64,000 bases of DNA from an uncultured Candidatus Saccharibacteria bacterium (GCA_964610335.1 CAZSVP010000001.1:223442-287441); one strand, 5' to 3'. Counted from the first letter of the stretch, positions 5,900 through 57,285 are shown. The notes: generated by a model not told the origin, from the sequence alone. Program-made: numbers and translations.

Positions 5900-6181
5900 C
5901 TACTCGTCCTCTTCGCGCCCCCAGAGGAGCAGACCGACGTCGGCCGAAACCGAGCACCGATGTAGAGGAAGAGTATGAACATCGCGAAGATCCAGAGCCC
6001 AGTCAACCAGCCAGTATCCAAACGAGGTATGGCTACACAGCCAGCAACAGGTAAGACGGGCGTCCACGAACTCCACGACCCCAGCTACAGCCTCAGCCCA
6101 CCAAGGGACGTAGGCCACAGAGAGCTCGTATGAGTACGGCTCATCACCTTCGTGATGTTGATGTACAGACCACGTACGCAT
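5900..6181 (-). CDS. Small Trp/Cys-rich hypothetical ORF in a high-GC islet. Coding status uncertain
   Basis: 93-aa ORF downstream of the FMN reductase on the same strand. GC-rich, with a gaaagg-like RBS. Overlaps an alternative 62-aa TTG ORF at 5833..6021, so the frame assignment is uncertain. Confidence 0.25.
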   Translation of the reverse strand: MRTWSVHQHHEGDEPYSYELSVAYVPWWAEAVAGVVEFVDARLTCCWLCSHTSFGYWLVDWALDLRDVHTLPLHRCSVSADVGLLLWGREEDE

Positions 6182-6862: not shown

Positions 6863-7258
6863 TTAATTTGTAAATATTGTTCGAACCCATGCAATTGCAA
6901 ATAGTATGAACATAGGGCCGTGAACAATGACTCCTAGCCAGCTAATAAGCCCTTGCAATGCTGCCACTGTGAGAAACACTGCCAAGAAACCATGAAAGAA
7001 TGTGAGTGTTGCAATCGGGACTAACCACTTCTGATCGCGGCCAACTTTGCCGTACTCTATCACAGAGTAACCGCTAAGTAATGCCATACTAAGTGCCATT
7101 ACACCGACAATTCGAAACAGTATGGCTGGCTCCTGTGTATGCACAAGTGTTTGAAACATGCTCGGAGCTATTAGCAGTAGTGAGCCGAGTACTAGCTGTA
7201 CTGCAGTGTTGAGGTTTAGTGCATAGTATTCGTACTTATGGCTAAGCTGCATAAGCAT
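6863..7258 (-). CDS. Hypothetical integral membrane protein (4 TM)
   Basis: 131 aa and hydrophobic. Confidence 0.5.
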   Translation of the reverse strand: MLMQLSHKYEYYALNLNTAVQLVLGSLLLIAPSMFQTLVHTQEPAILFRIVGVMALSMALLSGYSVIEYGKVGRDQKWLVPIATLTFFHGFLAVFLTVAALQGLISWLGVIVHGPMFILFAIAWVRTIFTN

Positions 7259-13178: not shown

Positions 13179-13574
13179 ATGCTACGAACCAAGTGTATCT
13201 TTGCCGAAGCTGAGCCCGATGACGGGTTGAGGATATCGGTGATGAGTCGGCACACGCTCGATGACGGGGTTACCCCAGACTTGCGCATCACTGTCGACTC
13301 GTTCGACTACCACTGGACGGTGTACGCGCCCAATCCTCAGTTGATCGGGAGCTACCTGCGCGACGAGGTCGACTGGACTGAATTTGACCAGCAATATCGC
13401 CAGGCGCAGCGCATGCCCGAACAAGTCGAGAAGCTCTGGACACTGATTCAGTGGGCAGAGGAGCGCAACATCACACTGCTGTGTAAGGAGGCCACTCCCG
13501 AACAGTGCCATCGTCGACTGTTAGCCGAAGAATGTCAGCTGCTCGACCCAACCCTGCAAGTCCATATCGCCTGA
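13179..13574 (+). CDS. DUF488 family protein (high-GC islet)
   Basis: The C-terminal ITLLCKEATPEQCHRRLLAEE matches the DUF488 signature. Strong RBS ggggagg and GC-rich codons. Confidence 0.55.
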   Translation: MLRTKCIFAEAEPDDGLRISVMSRHTLDDGVTPDLRITVDSFDYHWTVYAPNPQLIGSYLRDEVDWTEFDQQYRQAQRMPEQVEKLWTLIQWAEERNITLLCKEATPEQCHRRLLAEECQLLDPTLQVHIA

Positions 13575-13587
13575 AGGAGGCACCGCA

Positions 13588-13911
13588 ATGCCCGACATCA
13601 AACACCCTGGTCTATACAGTCTGTGGCTGTATGTTGACCGTGACAACGGTGCTCGTTTCACCTTCGTGGAGGTGACGGAGACCAGCACGTACGGTGCACC
13701 AGATGGCCATGTGGGAATGAAGTGGTACTCACTCAATGGTTGCACCGACAACCGAGAGTATGTGCACCGCGAAATTCCCGAAGAGATCCGGCGCCTCACC
13801 ATCGTCAAGTTCTGGCAGCTGGTGGATGAGCGCAAACTCATCTTCCTGAAGGAGCACCCTGGTGAGCACTTCGCGCCTGAGCCGATCTTGCAAGTCGGCG
13901 ACAAGGTCTGA
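13588..13911 (+). CDS. Hypothetical protein (high-GC islet)
   Basis: 107 aa. RBS aaggagg. No recognisable domain. Confidence 0.45.
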   Translation: MPDIKHPGLYSLWLYVDRDNGARFTFVEVTETSTYGAPDGHVGMKWYSLNGCTDNREYVHREIPEEIRRLTIVKFWQLVDERKLIFLKEHPGEHFAPEPILQVGDKV

Positions 13912-13927
13912 ACCCCAAGGACAACCC

Positions 13928-14086
13928 ATGCATGACCACCCCAACCCCTGTGAGAAGTGCAAGGAGCTCGGCGCGCCCACCGAGGGCATGACCAAGATGT
14001 GCCGTCACTGTGCCGGCAACTTCTGCTTCGGCCACATCACGGCTCACGAAGAGCAATGCGATGGGCCGATGAACCGCGACGACTGA
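13928..14086 (+). CDS. Small zinc-ribbon protein (high-GC islet)
   Basis: 52 aa from ATG 13928 (in frame with track ORF 13862..14086). Cys pattern CEKC...CRHC..C..H. Confidence 0.4.
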   Translation: MHDHPNPCEKCKELGAPTEGMTKMCRHCAGNFCFGHITAHEEQCDGPMNRDD

Positions 14087-14215
14087 GCACGGTTCGAACA
14101 CCGTCTGGGAGACTGCCCAGGCGGCTCCCTTCCAAGTGCTCAACCGGTTGAGTGTTTAGAAGGAAGCAACGCGATGCTATAATGCCCTTAAGCTAACATA
14201 AGGACTATAAAAATT

Positions 14216-28496: not shown

Positions 28497-28673
28497 ATGC
28501 GCAAGTCAATCCTGATAGCAAGTGGCATGTTGGTGGCATTCTCACTTTGGCGTTGGCATCGTGGAAATGTGCGGGTGGCGAATGGTTGCTGTCGGGCTTG
28601 TGGTAGCACGATTCACCCAGATCCTGTAGAGATGCATGTCTACTGTCCAGGTTGCAAGAAGTACATCTACTAG
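28497..28673 (+). CDS. Mini-protein with a TM helix and a zinc ribbon (third paralog-like member)
   Basis: 58 aa: MRKSILIASGMLVAFSLW...CCRACGS...(17)...YCPGCKK. RBS gaaggag. Start 1 nt after the previous stop. Confidence 0.4.
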   Translation: MRKSILIASGMLVAFSLWRWHRGNVRVANGCCRACGSTIHPDPVEMHVYCPGCKKYIY

Positions 28674-28735
28674 GTATGTACAAATATGCTCAATTGTTGT
28701 ACAATCTTGCCACCTCGATAAGAAAGGGGCTCGAT

Positions 28736-29098
28736 ATGGAGCCAACCAATAGTGCAGCGGATTTTTGGGGTCACATACACGCGCTCGAAGAGATGGTCAA
28801 CATCATTGAGGGTTGCAGTGACTTCCATTTCGGCTTTGTCGACAACGGTCCGGCGGATTGCTGGTTCGAGATCAGCTGGATTGATGCCACCCTCGAGGGT
28901 GGCGCGGTCAAGCTGACCAACCCCAACCATTTCCGGTTGATCGACGATGCCTACAAGTTGTTCACCGACCAGCATCGTGGCAGTTGGGACAGCTTCTCTA
29001 GGTTGTCGTCGCGTTACACCACGGCCGAGACCACAGCGCTGCGCGAGCGTGGCCGCAACAGCTGGCGTTCGCAGGTGACCTTCGGGGTGGGGACGTGA
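28736..29098 (+). CDS. Hypothetical protein (high-GC islet)
   Basis: 120 aa from the internal ATG (track ORF 28652..29098) with an agaaagggg RBS. Confidence 0.45.
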   Translation: MEPTNSAADFWGHIHALEEMVNIIEGCSDFHFGFVDNGPADCWFEISWIDATLEGGAVKLTNPNHFRLIDDAYKLFTDQHRGSWDSFSRLSSRYTTAETTALRERGRNSWRSQVTFGVGT

Positions 29099-40561: not shown

Positions 40562-40631
40562 AATACAATTACATACCAATTATTGAGATTATTCTCAAGC
40601 TGTAGTTATTATTAAACAACAAGGAACTCTC

Positions 40632-41864: not shown

Positions 41865-41876
41865 AATAACTACAAG

Positions 41877-41910
41877 AAAAAGACCCTTTTTTGAAAGGGT
41901 CTTTTTCTTT
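41877..41910. terminator. Bidirectional rho-independent terminator
   Basis: aaaagaccctttt-ttgaa-agggtcttttt, flanked by an A-run and a T-run, between convergent genes. Confidence 0.7.
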
Positions 41911-42258: not shown

Positions 42259-45080
42259 TGACCAAACGCTCCAAATTCGTTATATTTGATGGCCACGCAC
42301 TACTTCACCGTGGCTTTCATGCTATTCCTTACCTTACCAACAAGGAAGGTTTGCCTACCAATGGAGTGTATGGCTTTGTGCAGATGATGCTCAATGCCTT
42401 ACGTGAGCTCAAACCCGAGTACGTTGCAGTAGCTTGGGATATGCCAGGTAAGACATTCCGTCACGATAAGTACGAGGCCTACAAGGCTACTCGCAAAGAG
42501 ACCGATCCAGACTTGGTGGCGCAGTTTGATACTACTCGTGAGCTAGTAGCGGCATTTAATATCCCATTGATTGGAGTAGAGGGTTATGAGGCTGATGATG
42601 TGATTGGCACCTTGGTAGAGCAGTATCAAGCCAAACACGATGTAGTGGTTGTCACGGGCGACATGGATGAGCTGCAGCTAGTGAGCCCAACCACCAAGAT
42701 CTACACATTGCGCAAGGGATTTAGCGATACAGTCATATACGATGAAGCCGCAGTGATGGATAAGTACGGAGTGAGTCCTCAGGAGTTTATAGTTTACAAG
42801 GCGCTCAAAGGCGACAGCAGCGATAATATCCCAGGTGTAGCTGGCATCGGCGACAAAACAGCTACAGAATTGGTTTCAGCCTACCATAGCCTTGATAACA
42901 TGTATAAAAATCTTGATCAAATCAAGCCAGCTGTAGCGCGCAAGCTTGAGGCTGGTCGCGAACTGGCCTATATGAGCGAAGATCTGGCTACAATTGAGCG
43001 CAATGTCCCAATCGAGTTTGATATGAAAAACGCCGTAATTCACGACTATGACAAACAGAAGGTATTTGATCTGTTTCACAAACTAGAGTTCAAGAGTTTG
43101 CTCAACCGTTTGCCTGCCCACATGGTTGGGGATAGTAAGTTTGTAGCTGAAGATCCTACTATTCAAGAGAAAACTTTCAACCGCAAGCATCTAGACACAT
43201 CGCGCTATCATGGAGTGACCTCCGAGTCGGAGTTGGATAGTTTGGTGGCTTTGCTATCCAAACAGAAGATCATCGCCTTTGACACTGAGACAACCTCCGA
43301 AGACCCAATCGACGCGCGGTTAGTTGGTATGAGCTTTGCTACGAAAGAGGGGGAAGCTTATTACATACCACTCACTCATGTCAAAGCCGACAACTTGGTC
43401 AAGGCGACGAAGGCCAAACAGACCAGTTTGCTGGAGCGAGAAGATGGCGACTTTGAGCTAGCCGAGGGGCAGTTGTCGGTGGCGACAGTGATAGATAAGC
43501 TCAAGCCGGTACTTGAGTCATCTAAGATTGGCAAGGTAGGTCACAATATCAAGTACGACTATGTGGTGATGCGCGAGCATGATATTACACTTGCTCCAAT
43601 TGTGTTTGACACTATGGTAGCCGCATACTTAGTCAACCCCAACGGCCGAGCACAAGGGCTGAGCCAGCTGGCCTATAGTGAGCTTGGTATAAGCATGATC
43701 GATATCGAGGAGTTGATAGGTAAGAAAGGGCGTGGCCAGCTGTGCTTTGATTGTGTACCAGTTGCAGATGCTATCAAATACGCCGCTGAAGATGCCGACA
43801 TCACACTACGGCTGTACAACAAACTTGTCCAACAAATCACTACTGAACCTACTGGCAGCAAAATGTTGGCTAAATTGGCTGACGTAGCCGAATGGCCGCT
43901 CATACCTGTGCTGGGTGAGATGGAATTGGCAGGTATTAAGCTAGATACAGATTTTCTGGCCAAACTATCAATCCAATACGACAAGCAGATCGATGCTGTG
44001 CAACAAAAAATCTGGAAGTACGCTGGCGGACAGTTCAACATTAGCTCACCTGCACAGGTACAAGAAATATTATTTGATACCCTCAAGATAGACTCGTCGG
44101 GGCTCAAGAAGACCAAGACTGGTATAAGCACCGCAGCTAGTGAGCTTGATAAACTACGCGGCAAACATCCGGTGGTGGATTTGATGTACGAGTATCGTGA
44201 GCTCACCAAGCTCAAAAGCACTTATATCGACGCGCTGCCACTGTTGGTCAAAGATGATGGTCGACTGCATACTAGCTTTAATCAAACCATTGCTCAAACT
44301 GGTAGGCTTAGCAGCACCAATCCAAATTTGCAAAACATACCCATACGTACCGAATTGGGTCGTGAGATTCGCCAAGCCTTTGTGGCTGAGCCAGGTAAGG
44401 TATTGGTAAGTGCCGACTACAGTCAGATTGAACTGCGATTGGCTGCTGAGCTCAGTGGCGACAAGCCTATGATTGAGGATTTTAAGAGTGGCACGGATAT
44501 TCATACTCTTACTGCTGCCGAGATGTTTGAGGTTGAGCCAGACAAGGTCACTAGTGAGCAGCGTAGGGCTGCCAAGACCATCAATTTTGGAGTTCTATAT
44601 GGTATGAATCCGCATGGGTTGTCAGTAGCGACCGGCTTTGACTATGCTCAAGCCAAAGAATTTATTGATCGCTACTTTGAGCTGCGTGACGGTGTGGCTG
44701 CCTACATAGCCAAGCTCAAGAAGCAGGCACATGACCAGCAATATACCGAGACTTACTATGGCCGCCGTCGGCCATGTCCAGATGTAAGGTCGAGTAATTT
44801 TGCTATTCGAGCTGCCGCCGAGCGCGCCGCGGTAAACATGCCGCTTCAGGGTACGGCCGCGGATATGATGAAGCTTGCCATGGTGTCTATAGCTCCCCAG
44901 CTACCAGAAGGTGCTAAGCTGTTACTACAGATACACGACGAACTTATCGTGGAGTGTGACAAAAAACTTGCCAAGCAAGTAAGTGAGCTGATGGTAGCTG
45001 AGATGAAGGCAGTTGCGCCGAAGTTTAGTGTGCCGATCGAGGTAGATACTGAGGTCGCAACCAACTGGGGTGAGCTGTAA
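42259..45080 (+). CDS. polA: DNA polymerase I
   Basis: Start MTKRSKFVIFDGHALLHRGFHA (5-prime nuclease). Also has the 3-prime-5-prime exo region and the polymerase motifs RRAAKTINFGVLYG and QIHDELIVE. Confidence 0.9.
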
Positions 45081-45103
45081 GATTGTATTAATTTTTCTTG
45101 AAT

Positions 45104-45156
45104 GCTCTCCCAAAAACCTAATGTTTTAGATCTTAGGGAGAGCGACAATCACGACG
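45104..45156. repeat. Stem-loop element CTCTCCCAAAA...GGGAGAGCGACAATCACGACG (copy 1)
   Basis: 8-bp stem gctctccc/gggagagc with a 24-nt loop that contains an inner hairpin. Related to the copy at 46248. Confidence 0.5.
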
Positions 45157-45192
45157 TTTCGGACGGCCCCTCTCCTTGTTTGTCATGGGTGA

Positions 45193-45378
45193 CTAGGCCA
45201 TGAACCCGGTGAGAACGAATGCGATGCCGATTGGCATCATGAAGTTGCCAGCCGCCGCTGGGGCGAGCCACTCTGCCTTGAAGTGGTTCTCGGTCAGCAT
45301 GAGTCGGCCAATCTGCCATTGCAGACGTACTCCTTCTGTGAACAGCAACACGCCGAATACCGCGAACATGAGTCTCAT
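45193..45378 (-). CDS. Small membrane protein (high-GC islet)
   Basis: 61 aa and hydrophobic. ATGA overlap with the upstream gene. Confidence 0.4.
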   Translation of the reverse strand: MRLMFAVFGVLLFTEGVRLQWQIGRLMLTENHFKAEWLAPAAAGNFMMPIGIAFVLTGFMA

Positions 45379-45752
45379 GACTCATCTCCTTTCGAGCGCT
45401 CCACGATCTTGACGTGACGTGGTTGGTGGTGGCGACGCGGAGAATCGTGGTGCGGGCGGGTTTGCTTGGGCGTCGGGCGCAACGGCTCGTCGTTCCATCG
45501 ACGGTAGATGTTGTCTACCTGGCGTGGGCAGTCGTTGAGTAGATCATTGGCGATGTAGAAGCTGATGGCGCTGACCGGGGTCATGAGCACCTTCAGCCAC
45601 ACCGGCCAGTCGAGAGCTCCGAACCAGGCGAGTGGCGCGGTGGCCGCCACGATTCCGAACAGCACGATCGGAAACCACAAGATCAGATGTGCACCCGTCA
45701 CGTAGCAGTACCAGCTGATCTCACCGATCACTTCGTTGAACTTGCTCTTCAT
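45375..45752 (-). CDS. Membrane protein with a basic Pro/His/Arg-rich tail (high-GC islet)
   Basis: Start MKSKFN with an aggagg RBS. The track ORF extends further upstream as a low-complexity artefact. Confidence 0.45.
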   Translation of the reverse strand: MKSKFNEVIGEISWYCYVTGAHLILWFPIVLFGIVAATAPLAWFGALDWPVWLKVLMTPVSAISFYIANDLLNDCPRQVDNIYRRWNDEPLRPTPKQTRPHHDSPRRHHQPRHVKIVERSKGDES

Positions 45753-45760
45753 GTGTCCTC

Positions 45761-45910
45761 CTAGCGGACTGTTGTGGTTTGCTGTCCGACCCCACCGGGA
45801 TTGAACGGCTTTGGCGGGGTTGGTTGTTGAGCTGCGATCCAGGTCACTATCACCGTGCAAATGAGCCCGATGACGATAAACCAGATGAATCCTCTGAGGC
45901 AGCCTTTCAT
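45761..45910 (-). CDS. 49-aa single-TM peptide (high-GC islet)
   Basis: MKGCLRGFIWFIVIGLICTVIVTWIAAQQPTPPKPFNPGGVGQQTTTVR. ATGA overlap with the upstream gene. Derived by hand. Confidence 0.3.
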   Translation of the reverse strand: MKGCLRGFIWFIVIGLICTVIVTWIAAQQPTPPKPFNPGGVGQQTTTVR

Positions 45911-46146
45911 GGGCCATACTCCTGGTAGGTGGAAGGTGAGTGTGGCTTACGGCTTTCGATAACGAACATCGTGGCCATAAATACCACGAGCAGACCAGCA
46001 AGCAAACCAAACGACAACTTGCGAAGTCGTATGGCCCGCTTGGTCTGACTGCAATATGCCCAGATTGTTACACCGAGCATTCCCATCCACCCTAACATAG
46101 AGACCAATCCAATGGTCCCCAGAGCTATGTTTGTCTCTGTGACCAT
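45907..46146 (-). CDS. Small membrane protein (high-GC islet)
   Basis: About 79 aa from MVTETNIALG, 2 TM. Confidence 0.35.
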   Translation of the reverse strand: MVTETNIALGTIGLVSMLGWMGMLGVTIWAYCSQTKRAIRLRKLSFGLLAGLLVVFMATMFVIESRKPHSPSTYQEYGP

Positions 46147-46247
46147 CGGGTATCCCTTCTTGTCGTGATTGTCGAGGTGTTCGCAAACCCAAAAAAATCC
46201 AGATTCGCGATCTGGCCAACTATACCATAATTTGTTCAACTTGTCTA

Positions 46248-46299
46248 CTCTCCCAAAACGTTCAAACCTTGAACACTTTGGGAGAACGACAACCAACTG
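46248..46299. repeat. Stem-loop element CTCTCCCAAAACGTTCAA-ACC-TTGAACACTTTGGGAGAACGACAACCAACTG (copy 2)
   Basis: 15-bp imperfect inverted repeat. Shares its 5-prime CTCTCCCAAAA and 3-prime GGGAGARCGACAAYCA with the copy at 45104. Confidence 0.5.
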
Positions 46300-46370
46300 T
46301 TGTGTCCTCGCCCGGCCAGTATCTTATCGCGGCCGGTATGGGGGATGTTAGCAGTACTTTCTTGTTTCTG

Positions 46371-46949
46371 CTAGCACGTTTGGCCTGGTCGCGTGGTCGA
46401 TGTGCCGTATGGAAGGCACATGTTGTCGACCTTGCCCTGTCGCTGCGTCGTGGTCGGAGCCAGGCAGCTGTCGGGCTGCACTACCACGATGGCTGAAATC
46501 GTGCCATTTGGATCCATCGATTGGATGGTGTTCTGTGTGCATGGATCAGCCTTGTACGCTTCGGCCGGCGTTGGGATCTCGGGCTGAACATCTGGCACTG
46601 GGCACTTCCCGGTTGGAACCGTGAACTTTGGTAGTTCGTGGTTCCAACCGTCAATGAATGCCGTGTCGGCCAGGTATCGGAACCTGATCTTGCAGGTACC
46701 ATTGTCCAACAGGCCTTGGATCTCGGCGAGCGCCAACGTCATACCACTCACCTGGTAGCTCGGTGGCTTTTCGCAGCCGCTGGGGCCACACCCTTTTTCT
46801 TGGGGAGGGACCAACGGGTTGTTGAGCGGCGATTGCGAGTCACCGATGGTGGTCGGGCTCTTCACGGCGTCGTCGTTGGCAGCGGGCTGGCCGTTGCACG
46901 CGGTGCACACGAAGAACAGAGTGGACAGGACTAGGATGAGCCGTTTCAT
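46371..46949 (-). CDS. Secreted protein or lipoprotein, Cys/Pro/Thr-rich (high-GC islet)
   Basis: Signal peptide MKRLILVLSTLFFVCTAC. GC-rich codons. Confidence 0.5.
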   Translation of the reverse strand: MKRLILVLSTLFFVCTACNGQPAANDDAVKSPTTIGDSQSPLNNPLVPPQEKGCGPSGCEKPPSYQVSGMTLALAEIQGLLDNGTCKIRFRYLADTAFIDGWNHELPKFTVPTGKCPVPDVQPEIPTPAEAYKADPCTQNTIQSMDPNGTISAIVVVQPDSCLAPTTTQRQGKVDNMCLPYGTSTTRPGQTC

Positions 46950-46970
46950 GGCTCACCACCTTTCATTTTT

Positions 46971-46983
46971 GTTGGTTGTCGTT
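46971..46983. repeat. Inverted copy (GTTGGTTGTCGTT) of the 13-mer AACGACAACCAAC found at 46285-46297
   Basis: Exact 13-nt reverse-complement match. The two copies flank the lipoprotein gene. Confidence 0.5.
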
Positions 46984-47078
46984 GTGGGGTGCTTGCTGGT
47001 TACCTGTTGGATAGGGAAATCAACAAACGCCAATATGTTATCATAATTTATACAATTTGTCAAGTACATTACACTCCA

Positions 47079-47115
47079 CTTGATACTTCTGTCTTGATAC
47101 TTAATACTTGATAGC
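47079..47115 (+). promoter_or_regulatory. 2.6 tandem copies of CTTGATACTT with 14-bp period, forming a TTGATA-N17-AATACT-N7-ATG leaderless-type promoter for fpg
   Basis: Read directly: cttgatacttctgt / cttgatacttaata / cttgatagc, then ATG. Confidence 0.45.
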
Positions 47116-48006
47116 ATGCCAGAACTACCAGAAGTAGAAATAGTTCGTCAGGGTTTGCAGCAGTATACTGCTGGCAAGCAGATTAAGGCTATCAAATCAG
47201 ATTGGCCGAAGTCGTTGCCGGTAAGCGATGTTGATGCGAAAAAGCATATAGTAGGTGCTAACATCAAATCTGTAGATAGACGAGCCAAGGTGCTCTTGAT
47301 ACATCTGAATAATGGTTATACCCTCATGTGTCATCTCAAGATGACCGGGCAGCTAGTGTTTGTAAGCAAGACCGAGCACTTTGGTGCTGGTCACCCCAAC
47401 GACAGCTTAATAGCCAAGCTTCCAGATCGCTCGACGCGGGTAAATATTACCTTTACAGATAGTAGCCACCTGTATTTCAACGACCAGCGCAAGTTTGGTT
47501 GGATTAAGCTAGAAAAGACTGAGGGGATAGATGATCGAGTAGATTTTTTGCGCAAGCTAGGCCCCGAGCCCATCTCCGAACAATACAACTTTGATGCTTT
47601 CAAAGCAGCTCTTCAGCGTCGGTCACGCACCACTATCAAAGCTGCAATTCTAGATCAGACAGTGATAGCCGGGGTAGGCAACATCTATGCCGACGAGGGT
47701 CTGTTTGCGGCTCGGATCCATCCGGCTACCAAGGTTGCAGATGTGAGTACCATCAAGCTCAAACGTCTCTTCGAAGCTTTGCGCGAGGTGATGTTACTTA
47801 GTATCAAACATGGTGGCAGTAGTGACCGTAATTATGTGAATGCCAAGGGAGAGAAGGGGAGTTATCTACGCTTTGCCAAGGTGTTTCGTCGCGAGGGTCA
47901 ACTATGCCCGGAATGTGGTGGTGAGATTGTGAAGATTCGCGTAGCTGGCCGTGGTACTCATATCTGTCCAAAGTGTCAAAAGCTGCCGAGAGGTAGCAAG
48001 AAATGA
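47116..48006 (+). CDS. mutM: Formamidopyrimidine-DNA glycosylase
   Basis: N-terminal MPELPEVE and a C-terminal zinc finger CPECGG...CPKCQ. Confidence 0.9.
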   Translation: MPELPEVEIVRQGLQQYTAGKQIKAIKSDWPKSLPVSDVDAKKHIVGANIKSVDRRAKVLLIHLNNGYTLMCHLKMTGQLVFVSKTEHFGAGHPNDSLIAKLPDRSTRVNITFTDSSHLYFNDQRKFGWIKLEKTEGIDDRVDFLRKLGPEPISEQYNFDAFKAALQRRSRTTIKAAILDQTVIAGVGNIYADEGLFAARIHPATKVADVSTIKLKRLFEALREVMLLSIKHGGSSDRNYVNAKGEKGSYLRFAKVFRREGQLCPECGGEIVKIRVAGRGTHICPKCQKLPRGSKK

Positions 48007-50879: not shown

Positions 50880-51900
50880 CTCAGTTGATCACGAAACGCA
50901 CTTCCGGGTGTTGTTCACAATCAAGCTTGCCTGCTGTGCCCCCGCGTCGAGCGGGGATAGATCCGAAGCAGTAGGTACCGCACCGCGACAACGTTGAAAG
51001 GGGGTATCCATGGTCGCCATCCGTGGATCCACCGCAGCCGTCGCTTCCATCACCGCAGCCAAGAAGAAGAGCTGCACCGGGAGCGCCCGTCCCTGATCCG
51101 CCCGACGACAACCAGGGGGAACCTCATGGTTCGTGACCGCGCATCGCCTGCGTGATCTGTAGGCTCCGGCCTGCAAACCGGCCGCTCCGGCGGTCCACAG
51201 GTGCACTGGGTGCCTCAAGGGGAAAATGGTAAGTAGGTGCTTGCACCGACGCCTCACCAGCCCGCAAGACCAGGCCCAATACCAGCCTGGCACATTCGAG
51301 CCGCACTCACAGCGGCATGTGCCGGCGAGCCCCAGGGTTCGCCGGCACAGCTCGTTATTATCGACAAATTGGTGTTTTTGCGCTATATTTCGGCTACGGC
51401 TCTTTTGCAACTGAAAGCGGTAGGGAAAGCAATCTGATGGGATCGAGCACCTATTAGAAACGCAATCCCAAACCACGATTTACTAGTGCCTGATCACTTA
51501 CTTCCCTACATAGTAAGTGATGATGCGCGGCATCGCGTCCGTGTGGGTAGCTTCATATGTTTGTTGAGGGGTCCGCCGCCGCCGGATCGCGCTCCAGGCC
51601 TCTATGTAGTGTAGCTAGTAAGTCGCAGTTGCAACTGCCAAGACCAGATCGAGTGTCGGTAGGGAGCTGCTATACCCTACAGAAGTGAGACGAGCGGACA
51701 CGTGATGTTGTCTGACTCAGAGCATCCCAAAGCTCGCAGTCTCACCGATCGACTGGCATGCCCTCCGTGTAGCCGGAGGCAGATGCATGTGGTTCTATTG
51801 GGCCTCACCACCGCTGCATCATGATACCAAGGCTCATAATCGTGCCCTTAGTGTCAAACCTCGCCACCCGTAGCCGTCGGGTGGCGTTGTCCGTTATTAT
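50880..51900. other. About 1 kb GC-rich, hairpin-dense segment with no credible ORF. Candidate structured RNA or decayed foreign DNA
   Basis: No ORF of 60 aa or more in any frame across 51480-51940. The only long ORF (50889..51476, minus strand) translates to implausible composition. Many perfect hairpins are present, including ggcacat..gccgc-actcaca-gcggc..atgtgcc, gccggcga-N10-tcgccggc, atcacttact-N9-agtaagtgat and gcagttgcaactgc. Confidence 0.35.
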
Positions 51901-52716: not shown

Positions 52717-53157
52717 CACCTTGATTAGGTGTTATCTTTATAATAATTGCTCATACATCGATGTCTGCAGTAAATAGCAGCCCCAAAACATCGAGACCTC
52801 CGAGGCTCCAACGAATGTACGTCAGAGCAGTGAGGGTGTTTTTAGTATCCATCTGGGGATGGATTTGAGTCACTTGTTAGGTGATCTAATCACAGATGCA
52901 GTTAATCAGTCGTCAGCGCCCATGGTGGGCCCCTTTCGGTCTGAATAAACCAGCATAGTGACTGCGCTACTAGGTGGTAGCGTGCACTTGGCAGATCACG
53001 CAGCGGACAGGGACGGTGGTACTTCGGTTGTTGTGGTACATTTGAACGTCTCCCGGTGTCGGGTGGATGTGACTGTGACCAAAAGCATTGGCTTAAAGTC
53101 ACCTATATCATAACTCTTTGCATTATTTTGTCAATATTTATCGACATAAACGGAAGC

Positions 53158-53263: not shown

Positions 53264-53887
53264 TCAGTGCCCATTGCACCAGCCGTTGTTGCAGTTGCTG
53301 CACTTGCCACATCCGCTCTCGGAGTGTGAGCAACCGCTGGCCAGGATCTGGGCGACCTCGCGATTGGCGCCGTTGATGCCGGCCACCTGTAGCTCTGCTT
53401 CGTTGCTCACGCAGTTGAGTTCCGCAGAGGGTGCTGAACGTGAGCACTTGCCGTCGTTGCCACCACCACCTCGTGCGTCGCAGAAGGCGGTGGCCGTCCA
53501 CAACACGGGGTTGTAGCTGATGCCGTGCTTGTCCATGAAGGCAGTGGTGTCGCCGATGGTCATGCCGGAGCTGGGTTGCATTGGGTTGTCGGCTGGCTCG
53601 TGGTGGATGAACCGTCCGGCCACGCGCTGGCAGAAGCCGGCGTAGGCCTTGGTGTACAGGATGAAGGTGTGCCAACCGATGTCGACCGGCTTGCTTGGCG
53701 CGAAGTTCTGGTCGGGGTAGTCGGCGCACATCTTCAGGAACCCGAGGGCTCCATCGATGATCAGCTCAGCGGCTTCGCGGGTGACGCCTTCGTCGTCGAC
53801 CACGCGGTTGGCTAGCCGGTCGTAGAGGACCGGATGCACCAGCTCGCTGATAGGTGGGGTGGCCGTGATGGCCTCGTTGGTAAGCAT
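53264..53887 (-). CDS. Hypothetical 207-aa protein with a Cys/Gly/Ser/Asn-rich C-terminal tail (high-GC islet)
   Basis: Start MLTNEAI with an aggaga RBS (the track ORF extends to 53929). Ten Cys in the last 75 aa, ending GCSHSESGCGKCSNCNNGWCNGH. Confidence 0.5.
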   Translation of the reverse strand: MLTNEAITATPPISELVHPVLYDRLANRVVDDEGVTREAAELIIDGALGFLKMCADYPDQNFAPSKPVDIGWHTFILYTKAYAGFCQRVAGRFIHHEPADNPMQPSSGMTIGDTTAFMDKHGISYNPVLWTATAFCDARGGGGNDGKCSRSAPSAELNCVSNEAELQVAGINGANREVAQILASGCSHSESGCGKCSNCNNGWCNGH

Positions 53888-53980
53888 GATGCTCTCCTGG
53901 GGGTGTCTCTTGCTTGTGGGTGAACACACAAACTGTCATGTATCATCAACAGTATGTGATATGCGTATAATATAGTATCT

Positions 53981-54018
53981 TATACTATTTTGTCAATAAC
54001 TATTGACAAAATAGTATA
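53981..54018. promoter_or_regulatory. Perfect 18-2-18 bp palindrome (T)ATACTATTTTGTCAATA-AC-TATTGACAAAATAGTAT(A) containing back-to-back TTGACA -35 boxes of divergent promoters
   Basis: Read directly. Downstream -10 candidates are TAACAT on the plus side and TATTAT on the minus side. A related half-site TATTTTGTCAATA lies at 53124-53136. Confidence 0.55.
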
Positions 54019-55610: not shown

Positions 55611-55865
55611 ATGACACATCCGGATCAGATCCGAATCAACGAATGGTGGCTAGCCGAAGGGCTCGGCGCCAGCGCCGACATCGGCTTGGCCGCCACACCT
55701 CGTGGTTCCAACCATTCGATGATGGTGGCAGATCGTGAGCGGGGCATCAAGTCCACCGCGGCTGCCAAAGCCGAGCTCGTCGCCGACGGTCTCATCGACG
55801 AGGCCGGCCGGCTCACCACCAAGGCCAAGGAGATGGGTCTGCGCATGCCGGAGCGACACCGGTAG
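55611..55865 (+). CDS. Hypothetical small protein (high-GC islet)
   Basis: 84 aa with an aggagggg RBS. Confidence 0.4.
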   Translation: MTHPDQIRINEWWLAEGLGASADIGLAATPRGSNHSMMVADRERGIKSTAAAKAELVADGLIDEAGRLTTKAKEMGLRMPERHR

Positions 55866-56640: not shown

Positions 56641-56808
56641 GACAAGCAAGGAGCGCCGGGGACTGCATCCGCTATCCAGCGGAATGTGGTCCTCACAGCT
56701 CCCGAGTTTCGAACACACATTCGAGATTCAGGAGCTGGAGAAATTTCAGCAAGCATTTTTACAATCTAAATAATCAGCCCACCACAACCACGCCATCAGG
56801 AGGCAACT

Positions 56809-57222
56809 ATGGGTATCAACTATGCAGTGAGTGACCTGGGTGATGCAGACGGCCTGATCGACGGCCCGATCGATCAGCGCACCATCGACCTCGCCGAGGC
56901 GCTCAAGATGTTCGTCGAGATCACGAACGACATGGGTGCGAACCTCTTCGTCAACATCATCCACGTCGACGAGGCCAGGGTGATGGTCTACTACAACTAC
57001 TACCTCGGCACGTCCCCGTCGTCGAATCCCATGCAACTGCGCGTCATCAACCCCTTCGGCTTCTTCTACCAGTTCGAGAAGGACCCAGAGGACAACCTCG
57101 ACACGTTCGACAAGTTCGTGTTCGCGGTGTCGTGCATCGTCAAGGCGGTGCCGTGGATCTGCTCCCAGCAGGTGCTGCGGCGTGTCGTTGGCGGCGACAA
57201 GCTGGCCTACCAGCCGGCCTGA
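56809..57222 (+). CDS. Hypothetical protein (high-GC islet)
   Basis: 137 aa with a ggagg RBS and very GC-rich third positions. Confidence 0.45.
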   Translation: MGINYAVSDLGDADGLIDGPIDQRTIDLAEALKMFVEITNDMGANLFVNIIHVDEARVMVYYNYYLGTSPSSNPMQLRVINPFGFFYQFEKDPEDNLDTFDKFVFAVSCIVKAVPWICSQQVLRRVVGGDKLAYQPA

Positions 57223-57230
57223 TCATCGTT

Positions 57231-57285
57231 GTGGTGGGAAAGTGGGGGTCCTTCGGGACCCCTACCACCACAGGCTGATTGTTTA
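57231..57285 (+). terminator. Large nested hairpin terminator gtggtgg..gggggtcc-ttcg-ggacccc..ccaccac
   Basis: Read directly after the stop at 57222. Confidence 0.55.

Follow-up and report, generated by a model that had tools for sequence, protein, structure and literature searches.

What are the repeats between polA and fpg for? The locus lies in a 64,000-nucleotide (nt) stretch of DNA (hereafter the window) from an uncultured Candidatus Saccharibacteria bacterium (GCA_964610335.1, CAZSVP010000001.1:223442-287441). Between polA (plus strand, ending at 45080) and fpg (plus strand, starting at 47116) is a block of small genes accompanied by stem-loops and inverted repeats. A first-pass annotation had placed the block there, and its coordinates for the elements and the open reading frames (ORFs) all check out; it took the repeats for the boundaries of one small mobile or recombined cassette. 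We propose instead that the block consists of two paralogous minus-strand transcription units, not one mobile cassette, and that the repeats may allow the two ends of each unit to pair as RNA.

The starting point is a 13-mer, AACGACAACCAAC, described as recurring in exact reverse complement at 46971-46983, on the far side of a lipoprotein gene; this is correct. A second exact 13-nt pair (CGACAATCACGAC), around a four-gene operon, had been overlooked. The two related palindromes with shared ends were also rightly identified: in the window, exact matches to CTCTCCCAAAA are confined to 45105 and 46248, and those to GGGAGARCGACAAYCA to 45136 and 46280 (0.08 matches expected). The stem-loops and the inverted-repeat pairs share one layout and so form one repeated design; they are not the ends of one cassette. 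Read along the minus strand, each unit has a promoter, a leader with a 5′ arm, its gene or genes, a 3′ untranslated region (UTR), a 3′ arm and a CUCUCCC…GGGAGAG hairpin, with a gap of 0 nt between the last two. In order of transcription, the features are:

47035-47063, minus strand: predicted promoter of unit B, from a consensus scan (TTGACA, 17-nt spacer, TAACAT, TG extension)
46984-46992, minus strand: conserved GCACCCCAC, preceding the unit B 5′ arm
46971-46983, minus strand: 5′ arm of unit B, sense AACGACAACCAAC, about 45-57 nt past the predicted start site and 6 nt before the Shine-Dalgarno (SD) sequence
46371-46949, minus strand: unit B cargo, a predicted Cys-rich lipoprotein of 192 amino acids (aa), MKRLILVLSTLFFVCTAC…, without known family; GC content at third codon positions (GC3) 0.73
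46285-46297, minus strand: 3′ arm of unit B, sense GUUGGUUGUCGUU (AACGACAACCAAC at these positions is the exact reverse complement of 46971-46983), directly abutting hairpin 2
46249-46285, minus strand: hairpin 2, sense UCUCCCAAAG … UUUUGGGAGA, arms 46249-46265 and 46269-46285
46219-46247, minus strand: predicted promoter of unit A, from a consensus scan (TAGACA, 17-nt spacer, TATAGT, TG extension)
46175-46184, minus strand: conserved GCGAACACCU, preceding the unit A 5′ arm
46162-46174, minus strand: 5′ arm of unit A, sense CGACAAUCACGAC, 2 nt before the SD sequence
45193-46146, minus strand: unit A cargo, four small predicted membrane proteins (79, 49, 125 and 61 aa), GC3 0.58-0.77, without known family
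45143-45155, minus strand: 3′ arm of unit A, sense GUCGUGAUUGUCG (CGACAATCACGAC is the exact reverse complement of 46162-46174), directly abutting hairpin 1
45104-45143, minus strand: hairpin 1, sense CUCUCCCUAAG … UUUUGGGAGAG, arms 45104-45121 and 45126-45143, at the convergent junction with polA

The promoters are sigma-70-like consensus matches, from which the transcription start sites were placed. Promoters A and B have a 23-nt related stretch in common that is absent elsewhere in the window, and arms A and B share a CGACAAYCA core. Two exact inverted pairs are more than expected by chance: in 3000 dinucleotide shuffles of 45081-47115, pairs of at least 13 nt lying at least 100 nt apart had a mean of 0.034, against 2 observed, and two such pairs were reached in 18 of the 3000.

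The layout persists in relatives. Proteins named as Patescibacteria are among the fpg relatives, which makes a member of the candidate phyla radiation the probable source of the window. Contigs from nine further lineages were fetched, starting from homologues of three proteins (the lipoprotein, the fpg product and the 125-aa protein). In L016, L010-15, L017, L004-9, L018-21, L028-30 and L031-34 (fpg identity 82-93%), the block lies between polA (or polA and a NUDIX gene) and fpg, in one orientation. The 5′ arms are found 0-6 nt upstream of the SD sequence in every lineage, downstream of predicted conserved promoters, and the 3′ arms abut the hairpin without a spacer, again in every lineage. 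There is a promoter-like site at the unit B position in every relative read, and the unit A promoter is conserved in function in all relatives.

Both hairpins have z-scores of about -5 on the minus strand: hairpin 1 reaches -26.9 kcal/mol (z -5.12; plus strand, -19.3) and hairpin 2 -27.7 kcal/mol (z -5.05; plus strand, -23.2). The minus-strand RNA folds better in both cases because G·U pairs fall on that strand. Among the hairpins extracted whole, G·U pairs number 1-3 per hairpin in the sense orientation vs 0-1 in the antisense (the L017 row for hairpin 2 is incomplete), and one such pair is kept in 10 of 11 copies, with G-C in the remaining one. Double-sided compensatory changes are found at 6 of the 15 pairs; the base of hairpin 1 in L026 (UUCCCCC/GGGGGAA) shows two compensatory pairs. 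The upper stem of hairpin 2 differs in almost every lineage with pairing kept, while its base is conserved; in L017 its top carries an insertion of about 75 nt. On this evidence the hairpins are genuine folds of a single strand, and that strand is the gene-sense one.

Conservation within the block is highest in the arms and the hairpin bases. Identity was averaged per feature over an alignment of six lineages, five relatives being compared with the window. It is 0.97 for 3′ arm A and 0.92 for 3′ arm B. Positions 46162-46184 (5′ arm A and the 10 nt upstream of it) give 0.94, against 0.45 for the adjacent SD spacer; 46971-46992 (5′ arm B and the 9 nt upstream) give 0.89, against 0.46-0.49 for the remaining 5′UTR. 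Hairpin bases are at 0.82-0.94, hairpin tops at 0.51-0.74, and the flank after hairpin 1 at 0.29. For comparison, coding sequences are at 0.53-0.75, SD spacers at about 0.45, promoters at up to 0.72, and most other non-coding sequence at 0.29-0.60; 46300-46339, the region of a further hairpin in the unit B 3′UTR described below, is 0.85 identical across relatives.

Where the arms do vary, the two partners of a unit tend to vary together. The paralogues themselves show a compensated difference, UCACGAC:GUCGUGA in unit A vs CCAAC:GUUGG in unit B. Unit B of L017 has CGACAACCATACT / AGTATGGTTGTCG (CCATACT:AGTATGG) vs …CCAAC / GTTGG… in the window, and unit A of L026 has CGACAATCACC / GGTGATTGTCG (CACC:GGTG, the arms shortened in step) vs …CACGAC / GTCGTG…. 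The unit A arms are extended to 15 bp in L004; in L018 an outer pair is lost and an inner one gained, so that the register is shifted by one and 13 bp still form. In unit B of L011 and L028, 11 nt or 4+6 nt are kept, and beyond a bulge there is a lineage-specific matching triplet (CTG/CAG in L011, CTA/TAG in L028). Both B arms are missing together from L031 and L032, where a hairpin of the same style stays. In total, complementarity of the unit A arms is 11-15 nt in 10 lineages; that of the unit B arms is 11-13 nt in five of seven, and is broken (6-8 nt exact) in L018 and L028.

The co-ordinated change of partner arms, the use of different arms by each unit, the position of the 5′ arm beside the ribosome binding site and the 0-nt junction of the 3′ arm with the hairpin together point to RNA-RNA pairing. 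Long-range pairing between 5′UTR and 3′UTR, stacked on the terminal hairpin, is the explanation we favour, with confidence that is about evenly balanced. The computed arm duplexes have energies of about -19 to -22 kcal/mol, and in co-folds the arm duplex lies flush on the hairpin with a gain of 12-17 kcal/mol. These figures come from short segments and co-folds; longer UTR pieces allowed huge interior loops and were uninformative.

A looser third case occurs within the window. The orphan gene at 56809-57222 (plus strand, 137 aa, GC3 0.89) has a leader segment, 56772-56788, in which AATCAGCC overlaps CCCACCACAAC, and which is complementary to both flanks (57228-57238 and 57273-57280) of the gene's own 3′ hairpin (-34.9 kcal/mol). 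Its end sequences, read in the window only, are unrelated to arms A and B. A third unit built with different sequences argues for a pairing requirement, and against a site for one recombinase or one protein.

If RNA pairing is the correct explanation, the leader of each unit would bind the 3′ end of its own transcription unit, in one of two ways: within one messenger RNA (mRNA), in the style of hbs and icaR, or between new transcripts of the unit and a stable 3′-end fragment (arm plus hairpin), in the style of OppZ and CarZ (all discussed below). The 13-bp duplex would stack on the 17-18-bp hairpin, giving a helix of about 30 bp adjoining the ribosome binding site. This might occlude the region where ribosomes land, form a substrate for a double-strand ribonuclease (RNase), or both, and the likely outcome would be a feedback coupling completion of the transcript to further translation initiation or to decay. 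Negative feedback on initiation is favoured, since the duplex would abut the SD sequence.

Several points count against RNA pairing. The start sites, the 3′ ends, the presence of both arms on one RNA, and pairing and its effect in vivo are all inferred from sequence. Ribosomes translating the 0.6-1 kb between the arms could hinder intramolecular pairing. There is no clear U tract after either hairpin in the window, which makes the true 3′ ends uncertain; a terminator scan did not call hairpins 1 and 2, and hairpin 1 is followed by UUUU in L018 and L031 and by UUU in L032. In L018 and L028, the unit B duplex is weak (-15 to -17 kcal/mol), and the only two mismatches seen, both in these lineages (one at position 5 of unit B, the other at the terminal position of the unit A arm), read A·C in the sense orientation but would be G·U on the antisense. 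The G·T pairs confined to one strand would suit a DNA substrate folded as a single strand just as well. Finally, the arms are almost invariant, beyond what pairing alone would need, which hints at an additional sequence-specific reader.

DNA inversion is the main rival, followed by a protein-binding site and then by a mobile cassette. In the first of these, which we consider unlikely, the 13-bp repeats would be recombinase sites and each unit would flip as an invertible segment relative to a fixed promoter and hairpin, giving phase variation of surface proteins. The geometry suits it: two exact 13-bp pairs flank whole coding units, leaving the promoter beyond one repeat and the hairpin beyond the other, and lipoproteins and membrane proteins are the usual type of phase-variable product. 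The CGACAAYCA core could be read by one enzyme, and the strong conservation of arm sequence fits recognition by a protein. Known invertons likewise have inverted repeats near surface-protein genes, 10-30 bp long and placed around a few hundred to a thousand bp (PMC11892184; PMC11602134). Here, however, the promoter is outside and the whole gene inside, and neither a second orientation nor an invertase was found (in the contigs, and in the block and its neighbours, respectively). All block-carrying contigs examined, from many samples, have a single orientation, although assemblies hide minority orientations; a metagenome scan for the junction pattern of a flipped unit A gave 0 matches, a result of almost no weight, in a collection that returned nothing of this lineage. 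No recombinase gene is present in the block or its immediate neighbours. The arms also tolerate bulge or indel differences (L011, L028) and shifts of register (L018, L004); the constant 0-nt junction with the hairpin on the sense strand and the closeness to the SD sequence are left unexplained, and the third unit has unrelated arms.

A little less likely again, in our estimation, is that one sequence-specific protein binds at the arms and the hairpin bases, either on DNA, as an operator pair that forms a loop, or on RNA, with complementarity as a by-product. This would account well for near-invariance, which extends to the sequences preceding the 5′ arms (ACCU in unit A, CACCCCAC in unit B) and to the base CUCUCCC. 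It accounts less well for the use of different arms by units A and B, each matching its own partner, or for lineage-specific changes that hit both partners of one unit only (unit B in L017, unit A in L026). A 13-nt asymmetric site present once per orientation, 0.7-1 kb apart, would be an unusual operator layout, and the co-varying hairpin tops speak for folded single strands.

The case for a mobile or site-specifically captured cassette draws in part on what fills the polA-fpg gap in different lineages. A near-empty gap, the comparison that the first-pass annotation had proposed looking for, does exist: L022 (fpg identity 68%) has a single 76-aa ORF there, an ordinary terminator and no arms. 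L026 (69%) has other genes, the first of them a 76-aa ORF that is unrelated to the block proteins and lies in an A-type frame of untranslated sequence. An additional methyltransferase unit is present in L017 (87%), and an additional small ORF directly after the unit A 5′ arm in both L011 (93%) and L017. L031 and L032 (87%) have, in place of the lipoprotein unit, an unrelated 199-aa gene whose product is probably cytoplasmic. The breakpoints between lineages are near the -35 of promoter B, at the base of hairpin 2 or at a boundary between coding sequence and UTR, and not at the 13-mers, so that the cassette boundaries do not coincide with the repeats as had been envisaged.

The genes of the block differ in composition from their surroundings. 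In the window, their GC3 is 0.58-0.77 vs 0.48-0.51 for the neighbours rpoD, polA, fpg and holA; across lineages, block genes are at 0.56-0.83 everywhere vs about 0.35-0.6 in flanking housekeeping genes. Taken together, these observations support the description of the polA-fpg gap as a variable, compositionally foreign spot at which GC-rich genes are swapped between lineages. The idea of a small mobile or recombined cassette thus finds support in a weaker sense, in that the gap is variable and foreign in composition.

A mobile cassette (miniature inverted-repeat transposable element, MITE; a relative of the insertion sequences (IS) IS200/IS605; or an attachment-site arrangement, att/attC-like), with hairpins and 13-mers as ends or recombination sites, seems quite improbable. 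To its credit are the foreign composition in every lineage, the varying gap content, and the occurrence of like untranslated frames around unrelated cargo (the A-type frame in L026; a second frame in L017 and L031). In addition, IS605-type stem-loops are linked to lipoprotein genes in Borrelia (PMC2775950). The expected traces of mobility are missing, however. Exact and mismatch motif searches gave no other copies in the window; a covariance model of arm plus hairpin found nothing beyond the two known copies in the 64-kb window and the homologous ones in about 100 kb of relatives' flanks. The exact pattern of hairpin plus CGACAA had one match among 185,579 species representatives, in an unrelated member of the Flavobacteriales, and a metagenome scan for the unit B 3′ element gave one chance match, in an unrelated coding region, from a collection that seems to be without this lineage. 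As far as these data reach there are thus no copies elsewhere, and the polymorphism in presence or absence that does exist is tied to an intergenic spot, not to a repeat-bounded element. Neither unit, nor the block, has a direct repeat or target-site duplication at its ends; no transposase or integrase is encoded among the block genes or immediate neighbours; and no transfer RNA or transfer-messenger RNA gene was found that might serve as an att site. Position and orientation are fixed in all relatives carrying the block, and the most conserved parts of the supposed element are its arms. The suggestion of a MITE, an IS derivative or an att-like element bounded by the repeats is therefore not supported.

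The attC sites of integrons deserve separate mention, since hairpins with a conserved base and a variable top resemble them in style. In attC, R″ (RYYYAAC) and R′ (GTTRRRY) flank one hairpin and form its base. The polA-fpg block shares with integron cassettes its co-oriented units ending in such hairpins, its inverted repeats around an ORF and its strain-variable cargo. The arms do not fit attC geometry, however: the hairpin-side arm has its partner 0.7-1 kb away, before the gene, and not across its own hairpin; local pairing after hairpin 2 amounts to just 5 nt (GACAA), and after hairpin 1 there is none; and GTCGTGA in the unit A arm does not match GTTRRRY. Also unlike an integron, the block has its own conserved promoter-like site for each unit, a fixed position in the relatives that carry it, and no integrase in view in block or neighbours.

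A functionless relic, in which a regulatory frame was duplicated and the inverted 13-mers arose by chance or as a by-product of mutation near hairpins, would agree with the clear paralogy of the promoters, arms and hairpins of units A and B, but is nearly excluded by the exact arms, the shuffle test, the highest conservation in the block and the co-ordinated change of partner arms across lineages (69-93% fpg identity).

As an extension of RNA pairing, itself somewhat unlikely, the accessory GC-rich genes (probably acquired) may be held in conserved end-pairing UTR "frames," reusable modules for expression and feedback whose cargo is exchanged. Reusable frames would explain the A-type frame around the unrelated L026 genes, the second frame with its two cargos, and the third unit in the window. 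In a bolder version the inverted arms would also be the sites of cargo exchange, a natural form of recombinase-mediated cassette exchange.

The second frame can be described in some detail. The UTRs around the L017 methyltransferase (5975-6120 and 6900-6990) are homologous to UTRs in L031 (2686-2822 and 3416-3520), which, as in L032, surround the unrelated 199-aa gene. Its SD region, ACCCTGGAG, is complementary over 7-8 nt to TCCAGGGT in the 3′UTR, and the terminal hairpin of the frame, CCTCCCCTAAG…TTTAGGAGAG, shares the style of hairpins 1 and 2.

The cargo changes quickly. The lipoprotein evolves very fast relative to its neighbours (46% identity where fpg has 83%), and in L018 (4939-5493) and L028 (4008-4553) just the first 87 or so residues align to 46371-46949; the unit B 5′UTR arm and 3′UTR structures are kept in these two lineages despite the divergence. 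Homologues of the lipoprotein formed three clusters only in a search among 5.8 billion proteins, and none of the five cargo proteins has a match in Pfam, PHROGs or NCBIfam. The assignment as a lipoprotein comes from a reading of the signal peptide and Cys. The additional small ORF encodes a 56-aa membrane protein (L011, 5297-5467; L017, 4791-5006, annotated there as 71 aa) and is absent from the window. SD sequences of GAAGGGA type are found at both ORF junctions, a sign that recombination between ribosome binding sites may have removed or added the ORF.

The five minus-strand ORFs of the polA-fpg gap are at 45193-45378, 45375-45752, 45761-45910, 45907-46146 and 46371-46949. The first four had been described as co-directional genes with ATGA overlaps; all are indeed on the minus strand, but ATGA overlaps occur at just two of the three junctions in the unit A operon. 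Other GC3-rich islets (0.65-0.89) are found in the window at 13179-14086, 28652-29098, 50889-51476, 53264-53929, 55611-55865 and 56809-57222, in a background of 47% GC and housekeeping GC3 of 0.40-0.51. They are mostly without family, the only Pfam match among them being at 13179-13574 (DUF488), and suggest either repeated acquisition or a separate class of genes.

Two smaller hairpins belong to the block:

46312-46336, minus strand: 3′UTR hairpin of unit B (CCGGCC, 13-nt loop, GGCCGG), in all unit B lineages
46190-46215, minus strand: leader hairpin of 6 bp with U7 (CCAGAUCGCGAAUCUGG AUUUUUUU), just after the -10 of promoter A, a terminator-like match

In L018 the first of these contains a sense-strand U·G pair. 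The second is present in the window and in the L016, L004, L011, L018 and L028 types, while L017, L031 and L032 have a different leader hairpin, without a U run; it could stop read-through from unit B, or serve as a 5′ stem-loop or attenuator. No Rfam family reached its gathering threshold anywhere in the window, and the region gave sub-threshold microRNA look-alikes alone. Two further ideas were considered and set aside as inconsistent across lineages. In one, the conserved ACCUC preceding the unit A arm would act as an anti-SD sequence; in the other, the unit A 3′UTR would hold an alternative pairing, GGGAG:CUCCC.

Some other repeats in the window resemble parts of this arrangement. After the GC-rich three-gene cluster 13179-14086 there is a hairpin, GCTCCCTTCCAAG…TTTAGAAGGAAGC (14124-14167), similar in style to hairpins 1 and 2, with a pyrimidine-rich 5′ base and AAG…UUU; no complementary leader segment was seen for it. 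A divergent promoter region contains a perfect 18+18-nt palindrome, TATACTATTTTGTCAATA/TATTGACAAAATAGTATA (53124-53149, 53981-54018); an inverted copy (26 nt, 88%) lies at a distance of 840 nt, on the far side of the GC-rich gene 53264-53929. The 26-nt inverted repeat (53124/53988) was rejected as a pair of gene-flanking arms: the similarity is between promoter regions, and looks like a shared promoter or operator motif. Around rpoD, 40601-40610 and 41865-41874 are complementary over 10 nt, the 3′ copy touching a terminator palindrome (41874-41909); 10-nt complementarities between 5′ and 3′ ends, at rpoD as at other genes, are no more than chance would give in the window.

Few cases of end-to-end pairing in bacterial mRNAs are known that have been dissected experimentally. 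Here two adjacent units share the design, a third, looser example lies 10 kb away, and co-variation across ten lineages supports the design; the host is probably a bacterium of the candidate phyla radiation, in which post-transcriptional control is almost unexplored. If RNA pairing is confirmed, it would define a compact module (a 13-nt arm, an SD sequence, and a 13-nt arm fused to a hairpin) and with it a search pattern for closed-end mRNAs elsewhere. Untranslated frames that are highly conserved, set around GC-rich surface-protein cargo that changes fast, would also bear on the renewal of envelope proteins in these episymbionts.

Three known systems are the closest parallels. In Bacillus subtilis hbs, a 14-bp pairing of 5′UTR and 3′UTR, shown experimentally, modulates cleavage by RNase Y (Braun, Durand and Condon, 2017; PMC5737220), and ties decay of the mRNA to translation initiation (PMC5737220). 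The polA-fpg units are alike in having a leader/3′UTR duplex near the ribosome binding region, of similar length (14 bp in hbs, 11-15 bp here); they differ in that the pairing here is predicted, the 3′ arm is fused to a terminal hairpin and the design occurs twice in tandem, and the sequences are unrelated.

In Staphylococcus aureus icaR, a UCCCCUG motif in the 3′UTR pairs with the SD sequence, blocking initiation and making a substrate for RNase III (Ruiz de los Mozos et al., 2013; PMC3868564). Again a 3′UTR element is complementary to its own 5′UTR at the ribosome binding region. In the units described here, though, the arm lies 0-6 nt upstream of the SD sequence, and the duplex would be extended by stacking on the hairpin.

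The Vibrio cholerae small RNAs OppZ and CarZ are autoregulatory, derived from 3′UTRs, released by RNase E and dependent on Hfq (Hoyos et al., 2020; PMC7398697). Their seed lies just upstream of the terminator hairpin, is complementary to the translation initiation region of their own operon, and gives negative feedback (PMC7398697). The layout of arm plus hairpin in units A and B would fit that of seed plus terminator, with the difference that the target here is the leader of the first cistron. Set beside these three, the polA-fpg units are predicted to be a variant of known regulation, distinguished by their tandem duplication, by the fusion of an arm to the terminal hairpin, by the co-variation of their arms, and by their occurrence in the Patescibacteria.

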